DNA of 62,013 bases, counting the filler, from Hausera hauseri (lineage: Eukaryota): the NCBI GenBank assembly GCA_046269625.1. It is 10 parts of 10 records of this genome, joined end to end, with 100 filler letters (N's around TTAATTAATTAA, not from the genome) between each part and the next. Parts side by side here need not be neighbours in the genome. Positions count along the whole stretch, not along the records: positions 1 to 6,126 come from JBJURY010136872.1; 9 more parts are not named here. The stretch is one strand, 5' to 3'. Under the pieces are notes generated by a model. It made no database searches and was not told where the DNA came from. It worked only from the letters and a program-made list of their open reading frames with translations. Shown here piece by piece: positions 1-53,905 of the stretch (the first letter of the stretch is position 1; the number at the start of each line of letters is the position of its first letter). The translations under genes and the position numbers were made by a program.

Positions 1-2
1 AA

Positions 3-2480
3 TGTCTTATTGGCTGATTGGTGCCCTCCAAGTAATCCATCGTGATATTGAGTTAACAGCACTGCTCTATTTTTCTTGGGAATTACTAATGCAGGTCCGT
101 TTTGACTAATAAAGTACAGAAATCCTTCCTTCTCCTCGTACGCTTCGCTAAAGTGAGCCAGATGACGGGTTAACTCTTTGTCAACGGGCACGGTTTTATC
201 TTTTATGTATTTCCTAATGGCTCTTATTTCTTCATCTTCATTTTGATTTGCTTTAATCTTCTCAACTGATCCATCCATACTCCATACAGCTGCGACTACT
301 GCCTTGGTTTCTGTTTTGTCAGGTAGTCTCGACAAGTAATCGGCATTAGCATTTCGCATGCCAGGCTTGTACTGAAAATTCAAGGTATATAGTTGCAACT
401 TTAAAGCCCATCGTAGTAATCTGCTATTTGGATTTTCATGTTGTTTTAGCCATTGCAGTGGTCTATGGTCCGTATAAATTACGAGCGGTTTGTTCTCACT
501 AATATACGGTGAAAATACTTCCAAGGCGAATATCACTGCTAATAATTCCTTTTCTATTACAGCGTATTTCTTTTGATGCTTATTAAGTTTCCGTGAAGCG
601 TAAGCTATAGGGTGTTCCTTCCCATCTTCGCCCTTTTGTGACAGTACTGCTCCTATTCCATAATCACTTGCATCCGTTGCCAAGATAAATGGTTTGGTCA
701 TATCTGGATAGACTAATATAGGAGCCGTTAATAATTTATCTTTTAAATATTCGAAAGTTTTCTGACATTCGTTTGTCCAAATGACCTTATCTAAATCTTC
801 GCGTAGTAACTCGTATAGAGGTCTCGCAATTCTACTAAAGTCCTTTATAAATCTTCGGTAATAGTTCGCTAATCCTAGAAACTGACGTAATTCTCTAACT
901 GTACCTGGCTTAGGGAAATCCTTTATTTTTCCTAAGAGCTTGTCTTGAGGTTTTACACCATGTCTATCTACCTTATGCCCGAGAAAATCTACCTCTGCTT
1001 GTGCAAACGAACATTTCTTGGGGTTTATCTTTAAGCCCATTATTTCACATCTATCAAAGAGATCCTGCAAATCCTTTAAATGTTGTCGAAAGTCTGATGA
1101 CGGAATTATTACGTCGTCTATATATACCATAGCATGTGTGGCGTCTAACAGCAGGAGCTCTGTTCCTCTTTGGAACGTTGGAGGTCCATTCTTCAGTCCA
1201 AAGGGTATCCTATTGAACTCCCATAATCCTTCTCCGATTGAGAAGGCTGTCTTCGGCTTATCTTCTTCTTTTACCTCCACTTGCCAATAACCCTTTTGCA
1301 GATCAATAGTTGTAAATATAGTTGATCTATGTAGTTTGTCTAGTATCTCGTCGATTCTCGGTAATGGGTATGTGTCTGTTTCCGTTATTTCATTCAGGGC
1401 CCTGTAGTCTATGCAAAATCTCATACTTCCATCTTTCTTTTTAACCATTACTACCGGCGCTGTCCATGGTGAGCAGCTTGGTCGAATTATCTTATTTTCT
1501 CTCATCTCCTTTATTATTTTGCGAGCTTCCTGCTTCTTGTCATATGCCAGTCGGTATGGTCTCTTCTTAATTGGTTTATCTTGTCCATCCTTCAACTTAA
1601 TAACATGCTGTATTACTTTCATGGTACCGAGATCATAGTCGGTTTGTGCAAATCGACTGGCATTCTTTTCTAATAATTTAACTAACATTTCCTTTTCTTC
1701 CTTACTTAGAATTTCACATTTTTCTAACCTTTCGTTCCAATCAATATTCGTGGTTTTATTTCTTTTGTCTTCGTCTGGTTTCTTTTTCAACTTTTTTGTC
1801 ATCATCTTTTCTATTTTATCCACGTCTGATATTACTGAGTAGGTTCCTTCTTTTATTATTTCTTCCGTTGTGATTACCTTTCCTAATCTAGTATCTTTTC
1901 GTAACCGTTTTTCTTTATTTGTCGTGTTGCAACTACGTAAATGGATTTTCCAATCTCTTACTTTATCTACGTGAGGGGCAATTAGGACTTCATACTTTTC
2001 CGTGACTTGTGGGAATGGTTTGAAATAGATAATCTCCGGTTGTGTTAGACTTTGTATTGTTCCGGGGACTATTATTTCGGATCGTGGTAGGATCGTAATA
2101 TCCTTTATTAATGAGACCATTCCTTCGTTACGGTCTTCGTTGAACGTCTTCAGTTGACATGTTTTCATGTCGATATATGCGCCCTTTAACTGGTTCAATA
2201 CGTCGCATCCGATTAGGGTTTCGTTAGTCAAATTATCAGCTATTCTTATGGTGTGCTTGACGATCTGTTCACCAATCTTAATTTTTGCATCCAGGACCAT
2301 TTTAATTTCTTCATCTGTGCCAAATGCTCCTACATTCACTAATGTAGTCGTCGGCCTTCGCAATTTTCTTTTTAATTCTTTAGGCAATTGGCTCCTTCCC
2401 ATTATCGTCGTTGTGGACCCAGTATCTAGCAGGGCCATCATGGGGTACCCATTTACCTCTATTTCTATTTCAGGCCTTAC
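3..2480 (-). other. pol: Pol region of the polyprotein: aspartic protease (~2190-2480), RT (~870-1570), RNase H (~310-700), integrase zinc-binding start (<110)
   Basis: DTG and LIGCD protease motifs, YIDD, TDAS/EKELLA/TDHRPL/ADYLSR, and HDGLLGGH. The PR-RT-RH-IN order is Ty3/gypsy. Confidence 0.95.
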
Positions 2481-5400
2481 CGGTGTTTGTCGTTCGTCTT
2501 TTTCATCGACGATGTATGTGGGTTCACGTTTATAAGGAACTATATTTTCATCAAGATCTTGCCTCATCTGTTGTACTTGTTGCATAGGGTATAATCCTGT
2601 ATGCACCACATATCGAGGTGCCGAAGGACTTATTAACGGTTGTTCATTATACATTTGCCCATGATACTCGTCCGCAGGAGCTAACTGAGGCAGGTCAGTT
2701 ATTAACCTTTGTCTGTACTTAGGCTTTCGTGTCTTTAACATTAAATTTTTAATACTAGGTACTCGTTTCTTTACTTTCACTTGATTATATTCCACATCAT
2801 TATCATTGGGTATACTATACAGGGATTCTTTCATGTCTCTCCTTTTTAGTATTTTCCTCTTCCATTGTGCGTCGTGGTTCGCTAAGAAACAACTTGCCAC
2901 CGCCGGTATTACCGCTATTAGAATCTTCCATGAGCATCCTACTGCTGCATGAATTCCGTAGGCTTTACCTAGTGCCGTAAATACTGTGCGTATCGCACTA
3001 ATGATAAAATATATCGCTAGAAAACCGGAGGCTGCTTGACCAAAATATAAGAACTTTCCCCACATCTTCTCCATTACATTTTTCGTTACTTTCTTTAAAT
3101 AATCTTTACCCATCAGGTTTTCCCATTGTGGTGATCCTTCGCCGTCCCACATTACTTTCCTCGTTAATTCGGTTATGACCCTCTGCCGTTGTTGGGGAAA
3201 CAATAACATACGTCGGTAATCTTCTAGATTTTGTTGGGTATAAATTCCCCCTTGCGATATTCCAGTCAATGGTTCAAATTTCTGATTTCTTTGTAAATTA
3301 ATTAAACTTAACATCTCTGGTTTAGTTACCGGCTCTCTTTTGGGCATTCTAATCCATTTATCGTTATCGATCTTGAACATTGGTGACATGTTGAAGGTGC
3401 AATTATATAATGGAGTAGGTTTCACGTTAATCTCTAACAATATTCTAGTTACTGGCATAACATATCTCGGTTCGGTATGGTAAATCACAGGCAATTCCAT
3501 CGTACATTCTTCTGTGGGTCTAATTGACACTTCTACTTTTTTACATTCTATTGTTATTAATACTTCACCCATTATTCTGCCTATAACTCCATCACCGAAA
3601 GGCATCACTGGCGCCACCATATCTGGATTTGTTATCACTAGTGCCATTTTATTACGCATTATTTCGTAATTTAACTTACACTCGTTCATTATTATCTCAC
3701 GATATAAACTTCTAATTTCTTTCCTTACGTAATTGATCAGAAAGTCAATCTTGTTATCGAAGTACTGCGTTAACTTTACATCTTTCTTATCGATTTTAGT
3801 TTTGGCACCGGGTATTTCTTTTCTTGATAAGAAAATACCCTTGTAATTCGTTTTCGTTACTTCTTCATTACATTTAGTTGCTACTCCCATGATCTTAAAT
3901 CGCATCATATCTTCCGGATTTTCTGAGTATACAATTGTAGCTACTTCCGTCATCTTGACTTCCTTCGTTCCTTCTTTGTACGTCGCTGTCTCTTTTTCTG
4001 CTGATTTTCCTACAGTTTTATTAAATTTTCCTTCCTTTAACAACGTTAATTGACATTTACTTGCTATGGTTTCCCATGTCATTTTTGACTCCCCAGTGTC
4101 ACATTCTCCGTTATCGTACTCGCACTCACTCATAGTTGTCATCAATTTTGTTTGCGAGTCGAACAACACTTCATATTCCTTTAACTGAATCTGGTAATCT
4201 TCGATAGCTACCGTTCTAGGCGCAATAGTGCCTCCTACGTCATAATCCACTCCTTTACACGAACCTTCTGCCGTTTTATCTATTCTTCCTGCCCGGTATA
4301 TTCTGGTATATTTAATTCGATTTCGTACTGCCGGTATGTGCGCGTTTTGGATCGTAATAATACCAATCTTAAAAGCGTCTTGGCACTCGGCTCGTGATAT
4401 AATAATTGGTTCAAAAGGTGTCGTAGGCTCAATTATAGCTGAATTTCCAGAATAGTAAGCACAATTGAACAGAAAGAAGGACCTCTTTACATAACATTCT
4501 CTGACCTTTGCTTTTATAAACTCCGACTCTTGATATACCCAGTATGTGAGACCACTTGTCGTTGTGAGTTGTTCCGGATCAGCTTCTGGGCATTTCTCCA
4601 GGTCTACTAGAGAGTACTTTTGACCTTCACTAGGTTTAGAGCAATCGTAGGCTACTATACCTACTGCCTTTGGCATAAGCAGTGACGTTATTAACAAAAT
4701 TTGGATAATTTCCATCATCGTCATGCCTGTCATACCTGCTCTAGTGGCGCCTGGTTGTGTCGGGACTGGCGTCTCTATTAACCTTTCTCGTTCTCCAGGT
4801 CGTATTACGTTAGTCATCAAACTGCTTAGCCATCCACCTCTACATTGAGCCCAATTACCTAACGTATCTTTCAAAATTTTTACGGCTGTTCGTATATTCC
4901 GTTCTATTTCTTCTAAGTTTTGCGTTTGATGATTTATTACTATTATTTTATATAACAGATACGATATCGCCGTTCGAGCTTTCTCGCGTGTAATTCCGGT
5001 TGCGAACATTTTCTCTAAGATATCCATCTCGTGCAGTTCATTTATTCGTTCTTCCTCTAAGTTTTCATAGAACTGCCGACTTATTCGTAACATATGATTG
5101 TGTAACGTTGTAAATAATTCATCTGGTATCATTGTCTGCATATCAAACGAGGCGAATGATGTATGTAGTCTAGCCAGTAATGTTCTCAATAATGGGTCTA
5201 TGTCCACCGATTCCGGGGTACCATCTGTTCCTGCCAATAATAATCGTCTTACTATTTCTTCGTTTCTATCCTTTCTATTACGTATATCACTTATTTTCGT
5301 TCCTTTTGGCCGGCCTTTTCTCTTAGCTTCTGTTTGAACTGTGACATCCTGAGTGTCAACCATAGGATTCCCTACTTCCTGTGGTTCTAGTTCCCTTAGA

Positions 5401-6125
5401 ATATTTTCTACTGTTGCCTGAGCTCTAGCCTCTGGGTGTATTTCGGTTATCGTTATTGGGTTGTAGTTTTCACTTCTACATCCAATTCTCAATAATGTAT
5501 CGTAGTTATATAACGTCCTTCCACCATAATTTAATCCGTAGGGGCTTCCTTGATAGAAAGGCTCCACTTCCTCTATCTTCCCCCTTAGACTTTGTATATC
5601 GTCTGCTTCGTTCATCCTTATAACCCTTAGGTCATGATTTCCTTCCCTTATTGTTATCCGTATAACTTCATTTCTCCCTTTTTCGTCCTCAGCAGCTTTG
5701 GCTAATACCGTCCTGGCTATTTCTCTAACAGGACTGGTATCTTGGGATAATAGCACCAATTGACGTAGGATCTCATTCATCCTCTCTGGCGTTATCTTGT
5801 TGGTTAGTATCTTCAATATCGTAGTAATCGTTTTATCTACATCAATTATATTATCGGGATCAACCGTCAACACTGCCTGAATGATGTCTTCTTCTTCGTC
5901 TAAATCTACACCTGGATTCCTTATTACCTGGTCCAATATAGTATCATCAAATAATGGCGTGGATTGTGTTTCTTCTGGACTGAATGAGGGTGAAGGTGTA
6001 CTAATATTACTCTTCTTTCTTCCTCTTTTCTTTTCTTTCACTATGTCTCCCCTCTCTGTTGACGTTTCTCTTGATTCTACTTCTTCTTCAACTATTTTCT
6101 TATTGCCTTTCTTTCTTCCTTTACG
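3..6125 (-). CDS. Ty3/gypsy polyprotein, partial at both ends: UBL - AT-hook - signal peptide - class III envelope glycoprotein - TM - PR - RT - RNase H - integrase N-terminus
   Basis: Hand translation finds no stop over 2041 codons. Motifs all in one frame: KRKGRPKG, IVAYDC (4641-4658), FGQAASGFLAIY, ALLDTGS (D at 2424), RFCIDYRALN, PFGLKN, MVYIDD (1113-1130), TDASDYGIGAVL, NANADYLSRLP, HDGLLGGH. Confidence 0.93.
2880..4733 (-). other. env: Envelope glycoprotein domain (chuvirus-G/gB-like class III fusogen) inside the polyprotein
   Basis: Signal MMEIIQILLITSLLMPKAVG|IVAYDC. Cys-rich ectodomain with CYVKRSFFLFNCAYYSG, a central helix YFDNKIDFL...LYREIIMNECKL, GEVLITIECK..CTMELPV..PVTRIL, and GGIYTQQNLEDYRRMLLFPQQR. 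C-terminal hydrophobic segments at about 2880-3040. Confidence 0.85.
5439..5666 (-). other. Ubiquitin-like domain within the polyprotein, no terminal GG
   Basis: 76 codons VIRITIREGNHDLRVIRMNEADDIQSLRGKIEE...YGLNYGGRTLYNYDTLLRIGC...ITITEI. Matches the ubiquitin pattern (DTIENVKAKI; LIFAGKQL; TLSDYNI). Confidence 0.75.
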
Positions 6126-6126
6126 T

Positions 6127-6226: not shown

Positions 6227-8220
6227 ATCCCATGACTAATCTCCGAACCACTTTGTTTGTTTCCTTCCCTGAAGGGAGGGTTGCAGAGAACATAGGGCAG
6301 CTATAGAAGTAACAATGAAATTCATACACAAACCACAAGAGTAGATGACCGGAACAGATCAAAACTGCCATACTGAGTTAACAAAAATAAGAAACGACCA
6401 TCATCTTAGCTTTGGGGAAGCTAGATTTGTAAAGGAATTGCTCGACGCGATAGATCCTGACTCAAAAATCCTAAACGAAATGTACAAGGTAACATTACTA
6501 TTGGTAGAAATGGCAGAAATTAGTGATGAGAAGATGAGACAGTTGATGCCTCAAATACGACAGGCTGAAGAAACGTGCATTAGAATCAAAAAAGAGCAAT
6601 AAGGTTAGACGAACTAACCAAAGAACTGGACATTAATAGAAATAAATATGCATTTACTGAGTCAGGACTTAACTGAAAGACAGAATTCGTACAGAGGTGG
6701 CAAAGAGATGTAATAGTCGAACTGACTGATTATCATCAAAATGAACTCATTCATTCTGATAAACTAGGCAAACTATTGAAAATGATCCAGTATGTCTGTG
6801 AAAACGGAACAGGCTTCCAAACTACAAATGAAAGAAATACAACCAAGATTGAAAGAAATTCGATAGAACGTGCAAAGAACAAATACGGCACTAGTAGACT
6901 ATGGACTTCCGGAAGTTGGAAACAAACCAGAATGGGATGCGTACTTAGATGCTATAACTACAGAAAGTCCGATGACTCCGGTGCAACTAAACGAAACAAA
7001 AATGTATACACAGAACAGGAGATTCAATGTGAAAATGCTACTGGACTCAGCTCTAACTGAAAAAGATTTGATCGATCTAATTAAAGAAATATCTTTGAAA
7101 ATAGATTAAGACAACTTATTCCGACTCTAAATAAATTATCTAGTGAGAACACAATTTATAGCGCGGTGCCGAAACTTTTAATAAAAAATATGCTAAAATA
7201 ATAAGGGCTAAACCTGAGGTAATAATGAAAGTAACAGTATCATCCAAGTGTATGGATGAAAAGGAGTGTGTGTTATCTACATATTCCTATGTGAGGGATG
7301 TAAGAGAATGGTTAACAAATAATGGTGGAACAAATGAACTAAACTATAGATTCTACTTTAGAGGTAGAATACTGGACGATTTAAAACAGTTAATAGACGC
7401 TGGTATTATATCCGACAAAACAAACCGAATAATAGTAATAGTAGCTAATGAGCAAATTTAAGAAGAAGCCACGCGTAAAGCTAAGACAGAACAATGCGTA
7501 GGACAAATCATAGGAGCCCGAGACGCTGCAATGTATTTCGAGTATTTGCAAACGGATGAAGATAAGGAACAATATGATAAGAATTTAATGCCACAAAGGG
7601 GAATGATAACAACTGCCCAAAAACAGAAACGCCCGGTCGGTAGACCCAAGAAGACACGAGAAGAAGTTGACTATAACCGAAAATTGATTAGAAAATTGAG
7701 ACAGATGTCAGTTCCTACCTTAAGCGTAGACAACGAAGAATTAAGCGAGTTAATGGCGAATTTAATAGGCATCGTAAATTATTTAAGCCTCCATGGTGAC
7801 GTATTAGATGAAAAAGAGAAAGCGATATTTAACGCAGATCGAGTGGTGAGAAATTCTCGTTTTAAATTGTCAAAAAATATCCTAACAGACAAAATGGTGA
7901 TCGAAAAGATCATGGCGGAAAACACCATAGAGGAACTAAGAGGAAGTTAGCTACCAAAATAAATCATAGTCGAGAAAATGAGCTATAAGCTTAGCATAAA
8001 GACCGGCTAGAAAATTGCCTTGCGAAGTAAACTGGTCGAGGTTATTCGATAAGGATGAAGACAAACGATGTAGTAATAAATAATAGACCCAAAGATACGT
8101 TACATAATCTGACGAAAACGGACAATAGCAATCGGAGCAACGAATCTAATTGGCTAATCAGCTTGCTCACATTGATGATGTCAGTAAAACAGGTAGGTGC
8201 AATCACAGTTTATGACTGCG
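6227..8220 (+). pseudogene. Decayed fragment of the env-in-polyprotein family: linker, UBL (7225-7450), AT-hook (~7620-7650), signal + ITVYDC, truncated at ~8220
   Basis: ORF 7225 ...YRFYFRGRILDDLKQLIDAGI is UBL-like. ORF 7531 has KQKRPVGRPKK. WLISLLTLMMSVKQVGAITVYDC at 8150-8219. Alignable at DNA level to 25560-27500 (-). Confidence 0.8.
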
Positions 8221-11860: not shown

Positions 11861-13490
11861 AATTTTCTTTTCCATTCTTGATGTAAACTGTGATCGGCGT
11901 AATTTTTGTAATTTTGTACGGTCCTCTGCCAGTCCGAGTCAATTTTAATGAAGTTCCTTTTTTGGCTACTGGGTAATGTATATAAACCCAATCTTCCTAT
12001 TCTAAATCGTGCGGTTTTGCTTTCTTTTCTTTATGCTTTTTAAACTGTTCCTCGTATTTCTGAAATAATTCTTTAGCGATTTTCCAACATTTTTGTAGTC
12101 GCGTTTGTAACACTTCTGCAAAATTTTGTTCCAAATCTTTAGGGTTAGCCGTGTATAGGGCGTAATTCCTAAGTCTGTGGGTAACACAGCTTCTTGTTCA
12201 TAGATCATGTATAAGGGTGTAAGTCCCGTTGCCGGATGTGGCGTGATATTAATTGCAAACTGAGTTCCTTCTAAAAATTCGTCCAAACCTTTTTGGTCTT
12301 TGGTTACCATTGTCGATAATATACGTATAAAGGTTGCATTTATCCATTCAACCATTCCATTACATTGCGGGTGGTAAGTGGTGGTAGCTATTCGTTAGAT
12401 TTCAAATATTTTAATAATCTTCTCAAACAGTTCGCTTGTAAAACTTATTTCTCAATCTGTCAATATTTGATCAGGGGGTTCATACCTGCAAATGATTCGT
12501 CTCACTACGGCTTCTGCCAAAGTTTCTTCCTTCTGATCGGTTAGCTCTACCAACTTGAAGAAATGAGTTAGCCGATCAATACAGGTTAAAATATATTTGT
12601 TATTTTTGTGGGTTGTAAGTAATGGTCATACAATATCCATTGACATGGCTTGCATGGGTCTGTCTGTTACGTTAACTAGTTTTAGTTCCGCCATGTAGTT
12701 TTCCGTCTTTTTTTGTTTAGTTGCACATACTTCACAAGCACTTACCCAATTCTTTACAACAATGTAGATCTGGGCCAAAAGTATTTTTTCAATATTCCTT
12801 CTAGTGTCTTCTTCTATGATGTGTCCTGCTAAATATGAATTTTTTTCTGCCATAAAAACTTCGGTTCTTAAGGCTTTTGGAATGGCTATCAGTTTTTTCC
12901 TTTTAGTTCAAGATATAAAATGTCTTCACGGCCTTTATCATTCAAAACGCAATATTTGTGTCCGTGTTTCTGTAAGTGTTTCTTTAATTGTCGTCCTTTT
13001 GATATTGAAATCCTTTCAGCAAATTCTATCATCTGCTGGATGACTTTATTTTTTTTTATTCTGTGAACATTTTAATTGCTTTATGTAATGTTAAAGCGCG
13101 TTGGTGATCTATTAGTTCTTCAAGCTGAGTTTTCTTCATTACAGTGATTGCACCCATCTTAGTTTTTAATCTTGATAGTGCATCAGTATCTACGTGTTTG
13201 TTTTTGGCTTTATACTGAAATTGTATATTATATCTAGAGATTTCTTTAATCTATCTCTTAATCCTACATGTTGGATTGTTTGCTCGTTCTTTTGAAGTCC
13301 TGACGGTTTTATGATCAGTAACGATTATTATTTTCTGCCCGTACACATAAACGTTAAAATGTTAAAGTGCTTCATTAATGGCTAAATTTTATAATTCGGT
13401 AACGGAATAATTCTTTTCGAATTTCTTCAAGGAACGTCCTCCATAAGCAATTGGGTGTTCCAACTCTTCATCTTTTCTCTTCTGACCTAG
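11860..13490 (-). pseudogene. pol: Decayed Ty3/gypsy RNase H + integrase (with GPY/F motif)
   Basis: EHPIAYG, TDHK, DALSRL; CEVC and PMQAMSMDI; YHPQCNGMVE; TPHPATGLTP; GRGPYKI at ~11910. Many stops and frameshifts. Confidence 0.88.
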
Positions 13491-13704
13491 TTCGCTTGCG
13501 AGAGGTGCAGATATTAAATATGTCCAAGCCAAAGTAGAATACTTTATGTTGAATTGTTGGAAATACCCCGCTCAGGCATCCCAGGGATATGAGATAGGAT
13601 CACACCCCGTAGTCGCGAAACACACAAAATTGATGTTGCGAGAAAAAAATTACCCAATGGCAAAAGTTACAGACAGATACTTCAAATTAATGGACAACGC
13701 AGTG

Positions 13705-22919: not shown

Positions 22920-25900
22920 ATATTTATAATCAACTTTACATAAAGTAAGTACTTCCGGATTCAATTTGTACATTGATTTCAACATCTGGCCAAAGGCCCT
23001 TGTACTTTCGGGGTCTCTTGTTAATGGTGGATACGACTGTACTTTTAGCGCTTGTGGAATTGAATCATTTTTGATATAAGATATCTCGAAGCCTGTGTCA
23101 ATTAGGGCGTAAACTTCCCAGTCTTTATTAGTGACTTTGGAGAATGGCCTGCCTTCTATTACTGTTCCGAAACAATTTGACGCGGCTTATGGCCGTTTAA
23201 TCGTTGATATTTTGTGGACATTTATTTTGATTTCTGGGGAGGACACTACATTTTCAGATATTTGTCTTAGATCTCCATTTGGGTATAATTCATTGATTTA
23301 CATGTTCGACTCATCTTTTCCATGAGTACTGATTAGTGGTTCACGGTTGTTCGTATGTGGCTCTATAATTCGAAAAGTTTGAATCCTTTGATTTCCCCAG
23401 ACGGTTAGTCTGGTTTCTATATTCCGGGGTTATTTTGGAGAGTATAACATTCAATGATCATCCACCGACTGTCAGTAGAGGGCGTCGAATTAGCCCTATT
23501 CTCGTGCATTTTTCGTAAGACTCCATATTGCTTTGTTCCTTCATAAGGGTCTTCTAGACTAAATGATTTTTTATAAATTTCTGTTTGATACGAAACCATT
23601 GATCGTTTATTACAGACTTCGTAGACTTGTGCAGTTGGCGGCAACATGAGCAACTGTGCTTTTACAATGGAATACGTCTTACGTCTACTTACTTTAGGGA
23701 GGGCTTCTCCTACCTTAGGTTCGTCATCATCTAAACTTTTCTTTTGAATTTTGGGTTTTAAAACTTTCTCCTGCAAAAGAATATAGTCTTTCTTCTTTGT
23801 TTGCGATTATGGTAGCCGACATGACACTCTACGTCTGTTTTCCAATTGCTGTCTTCATAATCCTTTAGAAATTTTCCGAACGGTGTTATAATTGTAGTTA
23901 AAATTTAACATTAAAATCCAGTTAACATAAATAATTCGTACCCATTTATTACTGCCTTTATCGAGATTTTGATTAACTTCATTAAGATATATATCGCCAA
24001 AAATCCAGATGCGGCTTGTCCAAAAATTAAAAATTTTCCCAATATTTTATATTGTATCTCTGTGGTCATCAGTTGGTAATCGTCTGCAGCGAGAAAGGAT
24101 TCCCATTTAGCTTGGTATCGAGTATTGTCTACTACTGATTCCATGGTTCGATTTAATTCGTGTGTTCGTTGTCGCGAAAAAGCGAGAAATTGTCTAAAGG
24201 CTTCGATTTTCTTTCGTCGGTATATATCTTTCGATGAGGTATCATGGAATTTGTTATCCGTCATTCATCTTACAAGATCGGTTTCCGTTAACTTAATCAA
24301 GGCGGCGGTAATGCCGCCATTGGACAAACTTGCCCAATCCGTTTCGCTACGTCTAAACATTGGTTCGCCTAAACTTGCTTTACATTTTTTCAGGATCGTT
24401 GGCTAAGTTGCATTATTTAACAGTACTCTAGTAGGATACATAATCCACCGAGAAATATTCTGATATATAACCGGATGTTCTTGTATACATCGATTTTCTT
24501 CAACATTGATTGACTTCGTCGGTAACTCGACCGAAATTTCCTTCTCTCATTGGGATTAATGCTGATAATTCAGGATTGATATAAGAGCCCATTTTGTTCT
24601 CATGATTTCTATACCTAATTGACAATCGTTCGTTATCATCTAGTGGTATATTTTGCCTATTCCGACTTGTCCTTTGTAGCAGAAATAATCATCTCGATTT
24701 TTCAAATAATCTTCAATTCGGATGTCCTGCGTTTGTAAATTGTACATTCTCGCACTTATTTCGGTATCTGTGACAAAAAATGCTTCATAATTAGTGGAAA
24801 ACGTCACTACTTCGCAACGGGAGATCATTTCCTTTTTATTAAATTTTAATCCATGAGGGTCAGAGATTAATATAGTTGGCGTAGAGTGCTCCGCTACGTC
24901 TTCGCGTGTCCTTGTGTTGGTGTCAAATTTATTCACATATCGCTTACCGGTAGTCTCGTTGAATTTCAATTCCTTAATTTTGATAAAATTACAAGGTCTT
25001 CAAGAGGGAGGTTCCCATATTATAACTGAACTTCTGAAAGCACACGTTCCATCCTGTAGACGACATCTTTGATTTTCGGTGTATACTTTGGTGATACTAT
25101 GAAACATCAACTTCTGCGCTCGCATTTCTGATTCATAGAAATCTACATCCATTACGTTTGTTTCTATTCCTTTACCGGTGTCGTACTGTGCTCCATTAGT
25201 TTCCATTGTGCATATCTAGTCTTCCTACCACTACATTATATGCTCTAATTTTTTTCCTTGTTACATTTCAAGTTCCATCCCATCCCATTGTAGTCTTCCT
25301 TTTTCCCTAGCCTGCTTACAATGTTATCTTAAATTTATTGGAATTAAGGGCGTCGTTGGTTTGATTATCGTATGTTAATCCACAGTGGAAAATACTACGA
25401 GATCGTCGCAACATACATTCCATTCCATCCAGTGATATTAACTCTTGATGCTGATATAAGAAGTAACTTTTCTCTTTTGTCTCCAGCTTATGCGGTCTAG
25501 CGTCTTGTCAGGCTTCTAAGTCCATTAAGGAATATTTCTGTCCAAGTTTATATTTATCGCAGTCTTATACTGTGATGGCACCTATTTGTTTTACTAACAT
25601 CATCAAAGTGAGTAAGTTGATTAGCCAATTGGATTCATTTCTCCGATTGCTATTATCCGTCGTCGTCAGATTACGTAACGCATCTTCGAGTCTGTTACTA
25701 TTACTTGATCGTTTGTCTTTACCAAATAATCTTCACCAGTTTACTTCTCGAGGCAATTTCCTAGCCTCGTAGCTATTAATTTCGTTATCGACTGCTATTT
25801 GTTTGGATAGCTAACTATCGTAACACTTTTCTTAGTTGTTCTATCGTGTTTCCCACCATGGTCTTCTCGATCACAAAATCATCGGTTAGGTTACTCTTTG

Positions 25901-28900
25901 ATAATTTAAGAAGGGAATTTCTCATCATTCTAGCTGCGTTAAATATTGATTTCTCTTTTTCGTCTAATACGTCACCACGGAGGCTTGAATAATTTACGAT
26001 GCGTATTAGATTTTTCATTAACTCGCGCTAAAAGTAGGAATTGACATCTGTCTTAATTCTCTAATCAGTTCTCCGTTATAATCAACTTCTCGTATTTTTC
26101 TGGGTCTACCAACAGGGCGTTTCTGTTTCGGAACAGTTGTTATCATTTTACTCAGTGGCACTAAATTCTTATCGTATTGTTACTTGTCTTCACCCGTTTT
26201 CAAATACTGAAAATACATGGCAGCGTCTCGGACTCACATGATTTATCCTATGCTTTGTTCTGTCTTAGTCTTACGTGTGGCTTCTTTAGTCTGCTCATTT
26301 GCTACTGTTGACACTGGTTTTTCTCGTCGGGTATAATTCCAATGTCTATTAATTGTTCTAAGTCGTCCAGTATTCTACCTCTAAAATAGAATCTATAATT
26401 TAGCTAATTTGTTCCACCATTGTTTATTAACCATTCTCTTACATCCCTCACATAGGAATAAGTAGTTAACTAACATTCCTTTTCATCCATCCAGTCGGAT
26501 GATACCCTGACTTTCATCGTTACCTCAGGTTTAGTCCTTAAGATTTTAGCATATTTCTTTATCAAAAGTTTCGGCACTGCGCTATAAACTGTGTTCTTAC
26601 TAGATATTTTAATTAGAGTCGGAATAAGTTATTTTAACTTATTTCTGTAATATTTACGTTAATTAGTTTGATTAAATCTTTCTCAGTTAGCGCTGAATCC
26701 AGGAGCATCTCTACATTGGATCTCCTATTCTGTGGATACATTTCTGTTGCGTTTAGTCGTACTGGAGTTGTCTGATTTTTGGAAGTTATTGCATCTAAAT
26801 ACGCATCATATTCTGGTTCATTTCCAACTTTTGGAAGTCCATAGTCTACTAGCGCTGTATTCGATCTTTGTGCGTTCTCGCGAATTTCCTTCAATTTTGG
26901 TTGTATTTCTTTCATCTGAGTAGTTCGGAAACCTATCCCGTTTCCACAGGCATACTGGATCATTTTCAATAATTCGCCATGTTCATTAGAGTGAATAAGT
27001 CCCTTTTTATGATAATCAGTCAGTTCGATAATTACATCTCTTTGCCATCTCTGTACAAATTCTGTCTTCCTTTGAATTTCTGACTCGGTAAAGGTATATT
27101 TGTTTCTATAGATCTCGAACTCTAGTTAGTTCGTCTAACCTTATTGCTCTCTGTTTGGTTCTAATGTACGTTTCTTCGGCTTGTCGTATTTGAAGTATTA
27201 ATTGTCTCGTCTTCTCATTACTAATTTCTGCCATTTCTGTCAGTAGTAATGTTAACTCGTACATCTTGTTTAGGACTTTTTAGTCTGGATCTATCGCATC
27301 GAGCAATTTCTTTACAAACCTAGCTTCCACAAAGCTCAGGTGATGGTCGTTTCTTCTTTTTGTTGGCCCAGTATGACAATTTTAATCTGTTCCGGTCATC
27401 CATTCTTGTGATTTGTGTATGAATTTCATTGCTTCCTCTATAGCTGTTCTATGTTCTGGACAAATATCTAAAGTTTCGAGGTCCTGAATTGAAATTTCGC
27501 TAATAGGTTTAGCTGTCAATTGTTGGATTCCTTCTAAGCGGACGTTTCTTAATCTTGGATAGAAATTGCAAGTCATATTTCGCTTCTCCGTAAAACTTCT
27601 TTCTTCGATCATTTGGTATATCTCTTCCAATATAGTCATTTCTTGTTTCTTTTTCATAAAATTCAATTTTCGTAATGCGTCGAATTGAGTCCGGATATCT
27701 ATTTCCGCTCTTATTGTGTCTACGTTACGTGCACTTTCTTCTAGACGTTTATTTACTGTAATTCATCTATCTGGAAATTGTTAAACGGATTTTCACAGAT
27801 TTACTTAGTCTCGATATTAATTCGGACCATGCATCTAGCTGATTAGTTATGACTGTTTTTGCCAATATCGCCTTGTCTAGCATTTTGTAAGCATCTTTTA
27901 ATTCATCATTTGGTCCTTTTATAAAACTCAATCTGGCCGACATAATTAAATTCATCCTTATATTCGTCGAATTCCACGATACCAGCTTTTATTACGTGTT
28001 TGGTTTCTTCGTTATTCATAAACATTATTCGGTTTCTCAAGCTATAAATTTGTGATCTCTTCGTTCTCCTTTTTAATACGAGTCTCTACGTTCGTATATT
28101 GTTTATGTACGGCGAAGGCAATTTTTATCATCTCCATTAAGGAAGATATCTGCCGTGTCTATACCTAATATTTCTAAATCATTATAAATTCGATTGTTAA
28201 CCGGTTTTTCCCTAAGTCGATTAATCATTGCATATCTAATTCCATCCATAATGCACTCTATATTACGAACCACTTTTTTCAATCTAGGATTAGCTTCTAA
28301 CGTAGACAATAGTGTATCAGCTTTGGCTACTTTTACATCAACACTCTTCGTTTTTGCTCCATTCTTCCGAAAATTCGACTCCTTTTATCCATGATTCTAA
28401 TTCATGTTTCCATTTTGTCAACGTTTCAGGTGGCACTTCCTCTAGTGCCACTTCTTAGGTTGCCTAAGTCGATTGCTTCATCGAGTTTTCCTTCACTACA
28501 TAATTTCAAACTTTTATATAACCTCTCAACAAATTGCTGCTCCTTATCGGATATATCTACTTGTTTGCTAATCCGCTTAAGCTTTTCTAAATTCAGCTGC
28601 AGTATTTCTGGATCGTGGCAGTTAATTCTCAATTCTTAATTCATCGGCGTTTTTCCACGAACGTCTAACCTTCCATTTTCTCTGGTCGAAATTCTTCATG
28701 TTCCCTGTTTCTTCCTCACTAGTGGGAAGTGGGCAAATCTCATTTATTTCATTAATTAACTCTACAGATTTTTCCATCCCGATGGGTGTAAATTGACCTA
28801 TCTCTGGTGTGTTCAAGCTGGTTTCTACGTCACTTTCTACAGTAATGTTCGTATCTTTTGTTTCTACTAATTTCTCTAGTTACTTGAGATCGTGAAGGAA

Positions 28901-30686
28901 TTCTGTTATTGTTTAAGTGAAGGGCTACGGCTTCTGTGTATCGTAATTTTAAGTATTAATGGTTCCATAAATTTATCGGCTATATCGTCTTCGGTAACCT
29001 TATTTATTTTTTCGATTGTGAACTCAGGCCCTGCATCTAAGTCGACGTCTGTCGAAGTTCCTGGATTATCTGACTTATTTACTATTTTGTTAGTTGCCGG
29101 AACACTCTTCTTTTGTGTCATATCAATTCGCTTTTGCGCTATAGCATACTCGTGCTCTGTTTCCGGTTTTGCTAATCCATGATATACTTCTAGTAATCTT
29201 AGCTTATCTCCGTATTCTTTTCTGGCCATTAAAATTTGTGGATTAATAGCTTCAGCCTGAGAATCTAAAATTTTTCGTAAGTCTTGTATGTCGATAATAG
29301 TACCTATATCTCCAAGAATACCATATTTTGCTTTTAAGTTTTTATTAACTAATTATACTAGTCTTATTGGGCTCATTGAATGAAACGCTACGCGGATTTG
29401 GACATGATCTTGCAATGTGTCATTCTTTACCTCAAGTAAAACAAACTAAGTTTCCATTTCTGCCTACTCTGTCGACTGCCTTCATTTACAGGTGACTTGA
29501 ATCGGTTTGTGTTTCTATTGTACTGGTTTATCAAACTTTGTGTACTACCTATATTTCGTCGACTATCATTATTTCGATTATCATCATAACGATTTCGATA
29601 GTTAGAACCTTTATAGCTTCCTTCATTTCTATCTGTATCTGAATTAGACTTATTCAAATTTCGATCATTACCATAATTGTTATTTTGACTATCTCTGTAA
29701 TCGTTATTGCTATTTCTATTCTCATAATTGCTGTTACTGTTAAATCGTCTATTATCTCTTACGCGATTATCACCGCGATTTCTACCACTGCGATCATTTT
29801 GTTCATTATTTCTGTCATTTCTATCATTGTGTTTGGCATATTTATCAAGTGCCATCTCTAAGTCCTGGGCCAACTGCAAGGTTCTCTCGAAATTTTCAGG
29901 TCTAGCTAAAATTAACTGCTTTACTAAATCTCTGGACCAAATACCATTAATCAATTGGGTCGTAATCATGACGTCCAAATCTGGAGGGTTTGCCTTTTCC
30001 GCAGCTTCACGTTCTGCGTCTGTTTTGGCCTTTGCCACATTAGCTATTCTCAGTGTACTTACATAACTATTAGCGAGTTTCTTTAATGCAAATGCAAACT
30101 GGGTTACCGACTCCCCCTTCTGTTGTACCCTATTCTGAAATACCATAAATTTCTGTTGTAGCGTTACTGTTGGCAATAATTTACGGTTTAATGCTTCTAC
30201 CAGGGAGGACCAAGATTTCTTTTAATCATTAGTGAGCTCGCCGTAAGCGTCTGCGGCTAGATTTTTGAAATATAACAACAAACGTTTAATCATTACGTCA
30301 GGAGTAAGACTAGCACCTTCTGTGTGCAACTTATAAGTTCTCAAAAATTCGTTCAATTCGTCCGGATCACCTTAGTATGCCGGTAGATTCAGAGAATCAA
30401 AAGTGAAGTGCGCTACTGGTGGGTTATCTGCTGCCATATTATTTACGTAATCTCTAAATTTACTTTATTGTCTCTGTGAACTTTAGTTTTTACAAGAGGA
30501 ATCTTAAACTTATTAGTTCGCTGAACGGCTGTTAAATTTGGATTAACTGAGTTTACTCTTGTTTCAGAAAGTGAATGTTTATCCAAGTTTTCACTATTTC
30601 TATATGTATTTCTACGCTTCTGACGTATAGGCGAGTTTTCCTTATCGTTTAGATTAAGATTCATTTTAGACATCAATATTTCTTTA
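22920..30686 (-). mobile_element. Decayed env-in-polyprotein Ty3/gypsy element: gag (~29400-30437), ~2.9-kb linker, UBL (26300-26517), AT-hook (~26100), signal, glycoprotein (23900-25620), tail, protease (~22930-23150)
   Basis: Gag FQNRVQQKGESVTQFAFALKKLA; KQKRPVGRPRK; LLTLMMLVKQIGAITV*DC; FGQAASGFLAIY; EVYALIDTGFEISY. Many stops and frameshifts. Confidence 0.85.
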
Positions 30687-32473: not shown

Positions 32474-32567
32474 TTACTGAGTACTGTATCCTAGGTCCTC
32501 TGTACACTGAGAAATTGTCCATTCTTAAATTGTTAAGTTACATTTTTCTTGTCTTATCAAATAATTT

Positions 32568-35500
32568 TTGGCATTGTTAATCGGTTGTATTATACTTTTT
32601 GGTTTCAGAGATAGCATTTGCGCATATATACGTTTTATGGCGCAGTTATATGCTGGATTGAATATGAGTAGATATACCGGTGAGCCGGCTGCCTTTGACG
32701 ACTTCATTACCATGTATGAAGCAAAGGCGGATAGCGTCGACTGGGATGAAAAAGCAAAAGTAAAAATATTGGTAGGGTACTTGGAAGGTGTGGCACTGCA
32801 GGAATGCCTTCAGATAGACAAGGCGAATAAGCCATGGGAGTACATAGTTGAAAGATTTCGAAAATATTTTGACCCAGACTCTTCGTCCAATGCTCGATTA
32901 AGACATTTACGATACCGTGTAGAGCATTCGGGGGAATCGGTGAATATGTTCGCTCTGGATTTACAAGCCTTAGCAAAACGATATAAGATCGAGAATAAAG
33001 ATAAAAAGGCCGACGATAAAAAAGTTTTTGAAACAGAGCCTATTCTTGTAGATTGTTTCATAACCGGTTTACGAAATCCCAAAGTACAGCGACATCTCAT
33101 CGAGAGTGAGGCCTCGACATTTAGTGAATTAGTTAAGAAGGCTATAGGTCATGAAAATTTCGATGTTAAAATGTCACAAATATTACAGAGAGGTCTATTA
33201 CATCAAGACACGTCACCGTCTATACCTCATGCACAAATTACTGAATCATCAACACTTAATATTAACCAACCAATAAGTCGTAACACATGGAACAAACAAA
33301 TGGACCTGGGAAAAGGATGGCATCAACAACAGTGGTTGCAACCACCAAGGCAGACGATGGTATATGCTAGACCTCAAGGGAATATGGGACTCGGAGTGCG
33401 TCCACATTAGTCACCAATACAACGACTCACGTCCGCAACAACTGACGTCAATATACGACAACCAGCGGGATAGAATGCTATGGCGACCGGCGCCGCAGTC
33501 AATCGATTGCAGGTCGTACCAATGAGAAGTACTGCCAAAACTATACCATATTCATTAAGATCAATGGGTAATCAAAATCAAGCAACCACAATGGAGCGCG
33601 ATATTGTTAATTTTCAAGGACTAGTGCAGTGTCACAACTGCCAAAACTTCGAACATATGGCGAAATCATGTTCATACGTGTCACAAATGCCGGCTACCAC
33701 TCCACCGTATGCACGTGTTCCAAAACAGTGCCGATCTTGTGGTCAGTGGGGACACATTGTGGTGCCCACCGCGGCCGGTGCCCTTTAGCCCATTTGGTCG
33801 GGCACGGCCGGGCGTCCGTTGCCGTCGCATCGGATCCATAGTCGGACCCGATCCTCCGCCTTGAAAATTTCAGTCTTCCGTTAGAAATATAATTATGACA
33901 CCAACTATTTCAGATCTCTGCATTATATGGTGGTTACTTGATTGACGCAACAATGGTTACGTAATTCTTACACACACTTTGTAAAACTTGCATTTGTAAG
34001 TACATTGAAAGCAACCGTTATTGTCCGCTCTGTCAGTATCTAATTCAAGAAACCCGATTGGGTAAAGGTTGTACGAAACCAGATTTAGGTTTACAAAAGG
34101 CCACTTATAAACTCGTTCCAAATCTTATGAAATCAGGAATGAATAAAATCCGCGACTTTCACTCGAACAACAATGACACTGAAAATGTTTCCACAACAGA
34201 AAAAGTTTGCCTTTTACAGTCCGATGATAAATTGCACTGGAGTTTTCGGCGACGTAATTTCGATAATTTCGAACTTTCGGTAATCGGCGCAAAGTCATTC
34301 GGTAACAAATCGGAAAAGAACTGTTCCAAACCCTTACAATCGATATTCAGTCGACTAACCGTGACATTGTCGAAAAGCAAACGCAACACTTCAAGACACA
34401 GATTGTTCCACGATTTCCGTGATTTCATCTGGTCTTCATTAATGTTTATAATTCGATTTTGAAACTTTATAAACCGTTGGATAATTCGACAGGAGAAATG
34501 AAATGCCAATTCGAAATTTAACGATTTAATTTGTCAAATTTTCTCAACATTGTCCGAGAGCAAGTAGATCTTAATAACGGTATCGACATAAAGCGAACCC
34601 CAAACATCGAAGAGCGTATTGAAATCATCAAGCGAAATAAGATCCAACGGTAAATCCGTCTGAAAAATTACGGGCACACAAAGAAAATCGACAAAGGTTG
34701 CAACTGTAATTTATCGTTAGGCGAATGGTATGAAAAACTGTTTTTCATTATTCGTTGCGACAAACGACTCACTAACAAGATCCAGTTTCAAATTTTCCTT
34801 TTGAAACGTTTGACTAATGTTCGATTTGGATTGAGTTGAAAAGAGATCTTTAAACCAAGAACTATTGATATTCGCCAGATCATTGGAACGAATCACGAGA
34901 GTTGAATCGATGGGCAATAAGTAACCGACGAGTGTTTTCGATATACCGAATCATTTCTCACACAATTTCATATCGCCGAGTTGGGAAATACCAGAACATC
35001 GTTTTGAACAAGGAGTTGAGAATTTATAACAGCAATGACATCCCGGCCAAAACCTTAGCCGGATTAATAACCAACGTTCCCATCGTAATAATGATCAGTG
35101 AATAGAATTCTAACTGTTCGAAATATTTCCCAGCAATGTTCTGTTTATACAACACCTTCGTTTCCAATAACGACGACACAATGAGGCTCTTCTCAACTAA
35201 ATTGTACAGAGTCGGTTTCAATACGGAATCCATAAAAAATTCGATTCCATGAATTGTTGTTTTATGTCACACAATTGCATATCCATCTCGTAGATACATT
35301 CACAAACGTGATACCAAACGAAAGACGACGATTGTGTTACCGTGTGCGATTATTAACGTCGCCGGATTTACCGGTCCCCTTTTATTTAGCAATCTTTGTT
35401 TCAATAATACACAGTACTACGATTTGAATTTGAATTAAAAATTGGTCATATTGAAGTTTTTAACGACTTTGATTTAAGCACCACTACTATTGGAATTAAT

Positions 35501-37547
35501 ACAAAAGAAAACTTAAGCGGAAATTATTAAAAATTTTTTCAAAAGTTTCAAAGACAAAATACAGAAACGTGTGATGGGGAGCTTACTAAACTTAGTCAGA
35601 ATCTTTGGCTGCAGTCGTTCTCGCAGGATCTATCGATTGAAATCATGTTAACTAATACACATAGCAAAAAACTGCTCCGTACATCAACAACAATGCTTAG
35701 TACAAACGACAACTCACCAACAACATCTAGTCATGTCACAGCCTAAAAAGTGTTTTAACTGTGGTCAAACGGGCCACATGGCAAAGAAATTAAATACTAA
35801 TAACATGGCAATAATGCAATCACAGTATGATGCAATCACATCTTATCCAATAAATTCAACTAATTACTACCAGATGCACGCAAATGTTGGTTCGTCTAAC
35901 CAGTTGATACGGAGTAACGCTTTTGGTTTATCACAAGGAGAACGAAACGACTCAATAATAGACTTGGTTACCTCCACAAGCCCTGGAGAAGAGATCATAA
36001 ACCCAGCTTATGATGAAACAGATGATGCGCAATTGTCTCAAGACGAAATGGTTTTGCAAATAAAACAATTAAGATTGGAACGTAATGATATGCGAACGCA
36101 ATTTGAAAGGTTAAAATCCCTTCAAAATAATCAGGTGGCCCACTGAGTAACAATCCAAACGAAATATTAATTTCTCCGGATAAGGTACAGAATAAACATA
36201 GCCCAATGATGATGCATGAAGAATACGAATTAACAACGCCATCGCCATCCATAGACGAAACTGAAGAGTGGGATAACGCAATCGAAATAAACGGCCCAGA
36301 AGATCGGTTTAGGACGTTACTAGAAACACTAGGGAATGATGCTAAAAACGAAGTATTGGCAGTTATTATGGATCAAACATATGACCTCCACGAATGGATA
36401 ACAAAGAATAAAACACGATTTATGAAAATAAGACAATTTCTAATAACTCAGGCGGCAGACGGTGCTACGCATAGAGACGTTGCAAGGTTGATATTAAAAA
36501 TATTTGCCGAGAAAGAGGGATTTACACCTCAGAGGGAAAAGGTAAGATTCTGGTGCAATGTAGGATATTTTTCGGATAAGTGTGTGAGGTGACACAGGTC
36601 ATGATAGACCCTGAGACACCAATACGAATGGTGCTAAGCAAATTATTATCAATGTGCCAAACGCGTTATAATAACGTTTACATTGTAATCACAGTAGAGT
36701 TTATGGGACAAAGAATAGATGGCATGGAAATGAAATGGATAGAGTTAGGAATCATGTCCGGAATGGATCCTAACGAAACTGTTAAAATATATCTTAAGAA
36801 ATCAAACCGGACGAGTGATGATAATCAAAAAAAATTGGAACACCAAATAAATAAGATTTTGGGAGTAACAGAATGCATTAAACCCCTTCAAGCAAGTTCA
36901 GATAATTTGATTGATCAATCTGAAGAGATAGAAATACCGGAACCGCTACGGGTATTCGCGGAAGTAGCAAATTTAAGCACCGAGGTATTATCTAAGGAGG
37001 TGATACAAAGAAAAGAAAAAGGTGCGGCAGATATCAGAAAGAAATCAAGAGGAAGACCAAAGAAGAATTTGGTGGAACAAGTTAGTATTGACACATTAAC
37101 TCATGATTACGTCAAAGCGAAACTAGAAGTTTGGACCTTTAGATTCGACAAATCAAGCCAATTCTCCACAAAATTCACCAAATTCTATATAAGAACGAAA
37201 ATAATTTTCAGTCAGAAGAACGCATACCGCAGAAGGTTGAAAACATAATATTAAAAAAGGAACTGCCAAGTTCATTTACACTGTCAGAAGATAATGACAT
37301 CATTCAAAAATGGATGAAAGTCGGCGAAATGTCAAAAAATCGCATGATTGCGATTGTAGTATATCTAGTAATGCGAGTTCGGATGTCAAGTAACACACAG
37401 GACGACTGTGAAAGTAATAATAAAATTGCGATAGAGATCGCAAAGAATAATTTATCAATGGACGTTTATCGATTCGGTAGGTGGAAGAAGGTGTTGGTCG
37501 ATCCCCCAAATATTCTTATAACGCTGGAAAGGGTTTACCGGAGATAA
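32568..37547 (+). mobile_element. gag: Decayed divergent relative: gag with three CCHC knuckles, SUMO/UBL-like domain (~36540-36800), AT-hook (~37040), helical domain; truncated before env
   Basis: YTGEPAAFDDF..WDEKAKVKILVGYLEGVAL..GESVNMFALDL; CHNC..H..C, CRSC..HIAKNC (reconstructed), CFNCGQTGH; VEFMGQRIDG..WIELGI; KKSRGRPKK. Confidence 0.72.
33758..35657. mobile_element. 1.9-kb insertion into the gag zinc knuckle, 5-bp TSD CACAT, carrying a decayed minus-strand orphan ORF
   Basis: CACAT at 33753-33757 and 35658-35662. Removing the insert restores CRSCGQWGHIAKNC in frame with ORF 35733. Ends are TGT...ATA. Confidence 0.8.
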
Positions 37548-41400: not shown

Positions 41401-41560
41401 GAGGCAATCAAGAGCTGTTGTGTCTCATACGATCAGCCGATCGATTGAGCACCAGCAGCATACGGTGACCAATACAAAAGTCGCTTTATACAATAATGTT
41501 AAGTAAGTGAGTGGGGCGGAATAAGAGTTGGGCGTACGGACATTAGCGTTTGTAATAAAA
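38438..41560 (+). pseudogene. Polinton protein-primed DNA polymerase B with inserted HNH/EndoVII domain (decayed)
   Basis: KGSGWRI; YVIYANIEA; DHDHFIGRYFGAACNSCNL; FHN..GYD; IRGGMT; YIDINNL; YYKLKNNS..GKTVEN; EWVFVRPK; many stops. Confidence 0.9.
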
Positions 41561-42170
41561 CACGCATGAATTCGGTGCAGATAGATCAATGTACTGTGAC
41601 AATTCATTGTGATCTCTGTTTTGTATAAATAATGTTTATTTTTCGTTGTTTCTGCCTTTTTTATCATTTAATTTATCTATATACATTTATATATTTTACT
41701 TAATGTGACGAGAAACAATATAAAAAATCAATAAAATTTATTAATCATAAGCTAAAATCAAAAACAAAGTCATAACAGCGTAAACTTTCCCAACTTCCAT
41801 ATTGGTGATTTAACGCCATGAAGAACCTTGTATCCTTTCAACGTCAATGTTAGATGGCCTTTAGTTCCTTCCTGTGGCAAAACTGTTTTTCTACTGCTGC
41901 TGTTTCTCCACCGTGTGAGCTGACAATTCTCGCCATATTTCGTTGAGAAAAATGGACGATATATCTCGGATATCATTACTCAACACCAAATCACTCAGTT
42001 TTTCTAATTGTGTCTTCCATTGTATCCAAATCATCGTCGATGATCTTTTTCACCAATAAACCATATTTCACCGCTTTGATTTTGACTATTTGCGTCAATG
42101 GTAATTGAATACCGTTGCGCAGATAATGTAAGTGATAATAAGCACTGTATAATCATCATTGACATTGTGA

Positions 42171-53825: not shown

Positions 53826-53905
53826 CTGAATAGGGAGTTATTATATCTAATCATTTATGATATTGTTGGAAATGCAAACTATAAAGTATCACAAAATACT
53901 AAGTA

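Follow-up and report, generated by a model that had tools for sequence, protein, structure and literature searches.

A Ty3/gypsy fragment from Hausera hauseri with a predicted class III envelope in frame ahead of protease, likely a compact Burro-like element

Introduction

Can a gypsy retrotransposon carry an envelope glycoprotein (Env) inside its polyprotein, ahead of the protease, and is such an arrangement genuine, intact and new? The question is raised by one contig of Hausera hauseri (GenBank assembly GCA_046269625.1), which an earlier note, made from the sequence alone, had read as a Ty3/gypsy element of (gag)-env-pol layout whose novelty needed checking. The contig occupies positions 1-6126 (~6.1 kb) of the window, by which we mean the whole 62,013-nucleotide stretch of DNA that was analysed. 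The window consists of 10 short contigs strung together via N44-TTAATTAATTAA-N44 linkers, with N runs at 6127, 13873, 18364, 22520, 30687, 38338, 43067, 47515 and 55148. Since the contigs are joined by linkers, parts flanking a linker are not genomic neighbours. We consider it highly probable that the contig holds an internal Ty3/gypsy fragment with a predicted class III env in frame before protease (PR), reverse transcriptase (RT), RNase H (RH) and integrase (IN). The fragment likely belongs to the Burro-like (GAG-ENV-POL) group of flatworms, as a compact member.

Results

Positions 3-6125 on the minus strand form a single frame of 2041 codons with 0 stops, open at both contig ends. Translation and Pfam identify the 2041-amino-acid (aa) product as an internal fragment of a polyprotein gene of the order (gag)-Ub-Bcl2-env-PR-RT-RH-IN, where Ub denotes a ubiquitin-like domain. 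The uninterrupted frame reported earlier was thus recovered, and every env motif quoted with it was located (AYDC at aa 492, CTMELPV at 874, GIYT at 960 and FGQAASGFL at 1028). The description of the contig as a Ty3/gypsy element with an in-frame class III env upstream of protease also held, given the Pfam domain order, a best Pol match to Ty3 and a predicted fold like that of herpesvirus glycoprotein B (gB).

The env assignment draws on several searches. Pfam Monjiviricetes_fusion (PF24664) covers aa 470-1091 (E 1.4e-90), and Pfam, AlphaFold, Foldseek and VIA all point to a class III fusogen ectodomain, resembling gB and Monjiviricetes G, at aa ~490-1030 (3036-4658, minus strand). An AlphaFold (AF2) model of the ectodomain, built from a 100-sequence alignment, reached a predicted local distance difference test score (pLDDT) of 89.8 and a predicted TM-score (pTM) of 0.72. 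Foldseek returned 114 matches to this model at E 0.001, with herpesvirus gB throughout the matches listed and gB of herpes simplex virus 1 (HSV-1; 9e5v) the best (E 1.8e-15), as the earlier note had expected of such a comparison. VIA likewise ranked gB top (2gum, Z 9.9, root-mean-square deviation 8.1, 409 aligned residues), followed below the first gB by other gB, thogotovirus GP, rhabdovirus G and baculovirus GP64. TM-scores reached only 0.39-0.47, values to be expected when a monomer is elongated and identity is 10-14%. In the PDB, gB was absent from the phmmer matches of the single env sequence and was found with profile and fold alone; the env profile matched 37 rows, of which the best 30 were herpes gB (E 0.04-0.34). 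Despite the modest TM-scores, the class III assignment of the predicted fold stands. The env is complete and its cysteines are kept in the alignment of relatives, while no RxK/RR furin site was found within the ectodomain.

Hydropathy suggests how this ectodomain would be threaded through a membrane. An internal signal peptide is predicted at aa ~470-489 (4659-4718, minus strand; hydropathy 2.05 at aa 473-491), a call made from hydropathy and conservation. Cleavage is predicted after AVG, ahead of IVAYDC, and a comparable apolar stretch precedes xYDC in the 13 internal-env relatives with that motif printed. A transmembrane anchor is predicted at aa 1034-1052 (2970-3026, minus strand; hydropathy 1.85), and a single such C-terminal peak is kept in 18 of 18 relatives examined. 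A second apolar segment at aa 1064-1082 (2880-2936, minus strand; hydropathy 1.92) exceeds the threshold in just 2 of these 18. Because it is so rarely kept, we read it as more likely a membrane-hugging cytosolic surface helix than a second crossing, which would leave Pol in the cytosol. The basic env tail and env-protease linker (aa 1086-1216; 2478-2870, minus strand) follow in open frame and are tiled by contigs of two public sequencing runs, X1 and X2.

Downstream of env, the Pol region is arranged as PR-RT-RH-IN on the minus strand. It comprises an aspartic protease with LLDTGS (2181-2477, aa 1217-1315; Pfam RVP, E 5.9e-10), an RT core with YIDD (969-1445, aa 1561-1719; RVT_1, E 8.9e-33), an RNase H with DASDY ... 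KELL ... TDHRP (387-779, aa 1783-1913; RT_RNaseH, E 6.9e-40) and the start of an integrase zinc-binding domain, cut at the window edge (3-83, aa 2015-2041; Integrase_H2C2, E 0.02). This last piece, the start of the zinc finger only, aligns to a relative, P0002, immediately ahead of the integrase of that protein. The catalytic motifs DTG, YIDD and DASD/KELL/TDH are all intact. Among 13 PDB rows for Pol, the closest solved structure is Ty3 (E 2.1e-91), compared with 7.5e-60 for the next family, the best of the other 11 rows, which places the RT-RH nearer to gypsy than to retro-, caulimo- or foamy viruses; these rows include no BEL/Pao, and BEL was set aside by Pfam pattern and characteristic motifs alone. 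A conserved spacer between PR and RT (1806-2153, minus strand), homologous in P0002, P0007 and P0153, lies where Burro elements have been reported to carry a dUTPase-like domain.

To place the env among known proteins, 1.84 billion representatives were searched, yielding 1223 matches at E 0.001. The top tier consists of long polyproteins with internal env, and the rest are mostly glycoproteins of ~650 aa at 21-29% identity. Among 154 collected proteins with an env match, a Pol domain follows env in 15 and precedes it in 1; a further 124 are stand-alone or fragments (the label "stand-alone" also takes in fragments such as P0016 and P0018) and 14 are of other kinds. Protease follows env in 14 of the 15 env-then-Pol proteins, at 25-38% env identity, so env does lie 5' of PR elsewhere, a point that the earlier note had proposed to check. 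One candidate member of this layout, P0044, was rejected: its env is followed by RNase H only and, in the env tree, belongs to the half without the window. The most informative relative, P0003 (41% identity), reads gag-CCHC-Ub-Bcl2-env in a single frame, with one Pfam-detected CCHC and ~600 aa from Gag to Bcl-2. Apart from P0003 and the fragment P0010, the closest env relatives are only 37-38% identical. In P0019 a single frame extends from CCHC to integrase with env in between, Gag is in the same frame in P0003, P0008, P0013 and P0019, and P0153 is a 4844-aa env-PR-ankyrin-RT-RH-IN polyprotein. Matches to the env were also obtained in viral contigs (2 stretches) and JGI (Joint Genome Institute) metagenomes (19), with 0 confirmed as relatives in either set.

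Several features of these database proteins were recorded in passing. P0001, P0002, P0007, P0008 and P0153 have several protease-like domains per frame, compared with one in the window fragment; P0008 has up to 4 after env, and in some relatives protease-like domains lie after integrase. P0009 (HBK71150.1), a 2627-aa env-PR-RT-RH-IN polyprotein, is filed at NCBI under a Flavobacteriaceae metagenome-assembled genome and is likely animal DNA in a bacterial bin. P0095 (1000 aa) has three immunoglobulin domains ahead of a Monjiviricetes-type glycoprotein; either gene calling fused the two, or the env has been domesticated.

An env tree of 52 rows places the window in an 18-row clade with a Shimodaira-Hasegawa-like approximate likelihood ratio (SH-aLRT) support of 98 by a quick method; the tree omits 94 of the 124 rows labelled stand-alone, env stretches shorter than 400 aa (P0003 and P0078 included) and P0155. 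Among the 17 relatives in this clade, 12 are env-then-pol, and the clade is apart from the stand-alone glycoproteins and from P0004, a canonical gag-pol-env element. The window branch is long in both the env and the RT tree. A Jingchuvirales endogenous viral element was rejected as an explanation, the glycoprotein here being fused to gypsy Pol and grouping apart from stand-alone G rows.

Public contigs cover the 2041-codon stretch in 30, 30, 30 and 28 of 30 bins in four runs. Across the env-PR junction (2350-3100), X1 and X2 each fill 29 of 29 bins, X3 fills 22 and X5 fills 26, with no indel and one joint listed. Contig depth dips at 2480-2505. In run X1, 2101 of 24606 contigs are at least 99% alike to that stretch and 10836 are at 90-95%, so the family is abundant but diverse in the public runs. 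Among 9 runs, no RNA run was listed as containing the sequence. Synonymous changes account for 26 of 40 variants listed for the frame as a whole and 28 of 40 at the junction (52 of 77 distinct), with stops at 0 of 77, compared with random expectations of 0.29 and 0.034, respectively, counts that are descriptive since they cover the best-supported 40 of 1548 and 40 of 117. All 17 listed env variants are synonymous. Together with the kept cysteines, this points to selection on the Env protein, not to fusion as such.

Upstream of env, the earlier note had seen only a cytosolic region. That region is not Gag, and three features in it had been overlooked. A ubiquitin-like domain without the C-terminal GG lies at aa ~154-228 (5442-5666, minus strand). 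The window's stretch alone has no Pfam match; a 5-row profile (aa ~146-247 and counterparts) matches ubiquitin-fold chains in most of its best 60 rows. The scores are modest (RAD23A UBL, E 0.0056; single-domain ubiquitin-fold chains, E 0.002-0.03), those of polyubiquitin being inflated by repeats, and the P0003 counterpart reaches Pfam ubiquitin at E 0.031. A basic, AT-hook-like motif, KRKGRPK, follows at aa 268-274 (5304-5324, minus strand; GRPK at aa 271). GRPK is common to P0003 and P0008, with GRPP in P0002; this stretch of the window has no Pfam match, and the third of the sister copies described below has Pfam AT_hook at E 0.11 (36580-37245).

The third feature, at aa ~339-432 (4830-5111, minus strand; Pfam Bcl-2, E 0.0014), is likely a divergent Bcl-2-like domain, as judged from its sequence. 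Bcl-2 is the top match in PDB, profile and Pfam searches, each time below curated cut-offs: the sole PDB match is BOK (E 0.5) and the top profile matches are BFL-1/A1 (E 0.15). The BH1-like position lacks NWGR, and a BH2-like WxxxRGGW is present. Among the collected relatives, the domain occurs in P0001, P0003 and P0005 only (two of these are in the profile), with P0005 matching Pfam Bcl-2 at E 0.00096. Since it is missing from other relatives with the same env, it appears to be a module that comes and goes. Gag was rejected as an identity for the N-terminal region, which has no Gag or CCHC match; in P0003, Gag lies ~300 aa further upstream. With the N-terminal 397 aa as query, 7727 candidates yielded no relative 218-695 aa long.

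What lies upstream is shown by three sister copies on other contigs, all of them broken. The first (55343-59721, minus strand; tblastn with P0003 and the window protein) has gag, CCHC, Ub-like, Bcl-2-like and env in order, with stops and frame changes. The second (23830-30395, minus strand; tblastn) has gag at 30395-29841 and env at 25630-23830. The third (32565-37547, plus strand) is more distant and retains a gag-like frame (P0003 gag, E 1e-11), CCHC, the GRPK motif and a Bcl-2-like part (P0001 Bcl-2 region, E 0.006), with no env detected by tblastn. All three therefore place gag upstream of the accessory region, and two also have env. The proposed (gag)-env-pol polyprotein accordingly holds for env and pol, in one frame here, and for gag as far as relatives and sisters go, gag itself lying beyond this contig.

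Within the third sister, a RING-finger fragment (33965-34462, plus strand; Pfam E 0.0024), PCGF/BMI1-like by eye, sits between the gag-like and CCHC frames and may be an insertion or cargo that the element has captured. A segment of 1.9 kb recurs in two contigs at 81% identity (6287-8220, plus strand, and 25558-27457, minus strand). The latter copy sits between gag and env of the second sister, and the former is probably, from its sequence, another accessory-region copy ending where env begins.

The remainder of the window holds other repeats and one gene. Another gypsy element has left a broken RNase H-integrase, interrupted by stops, at 11868-13550 (minus strand). An unrelated gypsy-like element is represented by a fragment with protease and RT at 47617-48924 (minus strand), which has a long branch in the RT tree. 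The contig at 13973-18363 is a 15-bp tandem repeat, with ~230 copies matched per family, and yields long low-complexity open frames on both strands. Some 3.5 kb are common to two contigs (38438-41907 and 43523-47066, plus strand; 74-78% identity); their frames have no Pfam match, and we take the short frames, by eye, to derive from a family B DNA polymerase of the protein-primed, Polinton-like kind. An ankyrin-repeat and KH-domain gene, presumably ANKHD1/Mask-like, is spread over three frames at 50507-53837 (minus strand).

Discussion

The layout itself is not new, a point that the earlier note had left to be checked. Arkhipova and Yushenova described env inside the polyprotein of planarian Burro elements in 2019, in the order Gag, SUMO-like, BCL2, env, PR (PMC6431247), and the 2026 survey of Chary and Hayashi covers such elements more widely (PMC13524379). 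The ubiquitin-like and Bcl-2-like domains of such elements are likewise already in print (PMC6431247). The window element resembles Burro and GYPSM1 in having one polyprotein, with a SUMO/ubiquitin-like domain, a likely BCL2-like domain and a mononegavirus-type env in frame before PR-RT-RH-IN, and in being multi-copy with decayed sisters (PMC6431247). BURRO1 is transcribed and controlled by piRNA, and the passages on it in the papers concerned say nothing of env (PMC8532177, PMC11410931). It differs in scale. Burro1-4 and GYPSM1 in the strict sense, from dugesiid planarians, have a giant open reading frame (ORF) of ~4900 aa in an element of >30 kb; ORF1 is given as 4873-5140 aa with MATH, BIR, ankyrin and Smc or midasin-like parts and 2-3 CCHC knuckles (PMC6431247), none of which was seen here. 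The window fragment is 2041 aa with its upstream part outside the contig, and by homology with P0003 the whole frame would be roughly 2500-2700 aa. Furthermore, unlike in Burro, a 130-aa linker connects the env to just one protease. Because the giant size and the MATH, BIR and ankyrin parts were not seen, we do not file the element as Burro in the strict sense.

Chary and Hayashi found gypsy elements of the GAG-ENV-POL type, their env of the gB type, in Nematoda, Bryozoa and Platyhelminthes, with up to 215 copies in Schmidtea (PMC13524379). The Platyhelminthes C1a elements Smed_errantivirus_1-6 share with the window a Ty3/gypsy Pol and an HSV/gB-type env before pol. By eye, eight cysteines and the motifs VYQE, TG(E)S, MRF and TNYxG align with the six Schmidtea C1a env rows, a match that concerns env domains I-II; the nematode rows displayed and a single bryozoan row do not align in this way (PMC13524379). 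The Smed elements differ in sequence; the main text of that paper does not use "Bcl" or "ubiquitin", and its passages are silent on one frame for all three genes.

Other kinds of env-bearing element were compared. Canonical GAG-POL-ENV errantiviruses and Anakin were rejected, as env here precedes PR and does not follow integrase. Anakin BEL/Pao elements and arthropod gypsy elements with a chuvirus-type G were reportedly described by Dezordi in 2020. They share the glycoprotein family PF24664 with the window (for example P0004 of Trichogramma); in P0004 and P0119, unlike the window, env follows integrase and is placed in the opposite half of the env tree. In nematode endogenous retroviruses (NERV), a continuous gag-env-pro-pol ORF is said to have been found by Sacco et al. 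in 2022, and we know of no Bcl-2-like domain in them. As cited in PMC13524379, NERV have the glycoprotein gene before pol, so that, as here, a metavirus-type pol is preceded by an RNA-virus-type glycoprotein. Troyka (PMC12440569) is unrelated, as far as its passages go.

Several observations weigh against our assignment of the fragment to a compact Burro-like element. Gag, the long terminal repeats, the primer-binding site, the frame start and the integrase core are all beyond the contig, and no single public contig spans the env-PR junction. The variant counts are descriptive, as noted above. The Bcl-2-like domain scores 19.5 bits in Pfam, under the cut-off of 31.4, and the region modelled without an alignment gave a poor model (pLDDT 48.8), from which Foldseek returned 0 matches at E 0.001 and VIA generic helical bundles (best Z 8.5). 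Pfam detected no MATH, BIR or ankyrin in the 2041-aa fragment or P0003, and neither Pfam nor PDB searches matched dUTPase in the PR-RT spacer, a domain that Burro is reported to have there via HHpred (PMC6431247). Finally, the likeness to Burro1-4, GYPSM1 and the Schmidtea elements was judged by eye.

One alternative is that an assembler joined a chuvirus-like glycoprotein to an unrelated gypsy pol, or collapsed a repeat. The contig is short, the family multi-copy and diverse, and the depth dip coincides with a junction that no listed contig crosses. However, the frame is open over 6.1 kb, and the 14 relatives with env before protease, the complete tiling of the junction in two runs (no indel, one joint) and the published layout together argue that the join is not a chimera, as the earlier note had required; we regard an artefact of this kind as scarcely credible. 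Collapse of near-identical copies is possible in its own right, since the 6.1-kb fragment may be a collapsed assembly of a multi-copy repeat, and bears only on whether the copy is intact and young. That the frame is intact does not prove the copy young when the contig is short and the repeat diverse, so the "young, possibly active" element of the earlier note is weakly supported: the frame favours it, while the diversity of the family, the three broken sisters and possible collapse do not. Even with a genuine join, the element could belong to an independent GAG-ENV-POL lineage with the same layout (nematode NERV-like, bryozoan or of an unreported host group) and not be flatworm Burro-like. GAG-ENV-POL elements are not monophyletic (PMC13524379), and both the distance to the nearest env relatives and the long window branches would suit such an origin. 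We think it very unlikely, because ubiquitin-like and Bcl-2-like domains directly before env are the published Burro signature (PMC6431247) and the env motifs fit the Schmidtea rows, not the nematode or bryozoan rows seen (PMC13524379).

A further alternative leaves the family assignment untouched and bears on function: the element may be intracellular only, its Env a leftover or a membrane anchor for the polyprotein that causes no fusion. A 1:1:1 output of Gag, Env and Pol is unusual for retroviruses, and Env is known here from sequence and model. The provirus reading of Burro was itself put forward as a hypothesis (PMC6431247). On the other side stand a complete Env with a confidently predicted gB fold, kept cysteines and exclusively synonymous listed variants, and we hold Env as mere cargo to be doubtful.

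If the fragment is a compact Burro-like element, a single mRNA would be translated into a single polyprotein. Of its parts, Gag and the accessory domains (ubiquitin-like, AT-hook and Bcl-2-like) would remain cytosolic, while the internal signal peptide would thread the ectodomain into the endoplasmic reticulum (ER), signal peptidase cutting before IVAYDC. The helix at aa 1034-1052 would stop transfer, Pol would be made on the cytosolic face, and the element's own protease would release the Pol enzymes along with Gag. Env would form trimers and might enable particles to move between cells, and apoptosis of the expressing cell would likely be held down by the Bcl-2-like domain; no functional test of Burro-type Bcl-2-like or apoptosis domains was found in the literature searched, most subscription journals being outside it. 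A bolder version, which we consider improbable, is that a compact single-protease Burro-like branch, perhaps with a host outside Dugesiidae, has captured a working Bcl-2 and uses the Env signal peptide also as the tail anchor of that protein, which would make the element an infectious retrovirus of invertebrates that brings its own viral Bcl-2. If so, one cut would free the fusogen into the ER and leave an anti-apoptotic protein on the membrane.

The fragment adds no new architecture. It is a small, clean example of the little-studied env-inside-polyprotein layout, with far fewer accessory domains than Burro1, and the 14 proteins with env ahead of protease show that this layout is common in unannotated public assemblies. 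Its compactness eases the study, on separate natural domains, of how the parts of a gypsy polyprotein come to lie on either side of the ER membrane, and of what effect the Bcl-2-like domain may have on cell death.

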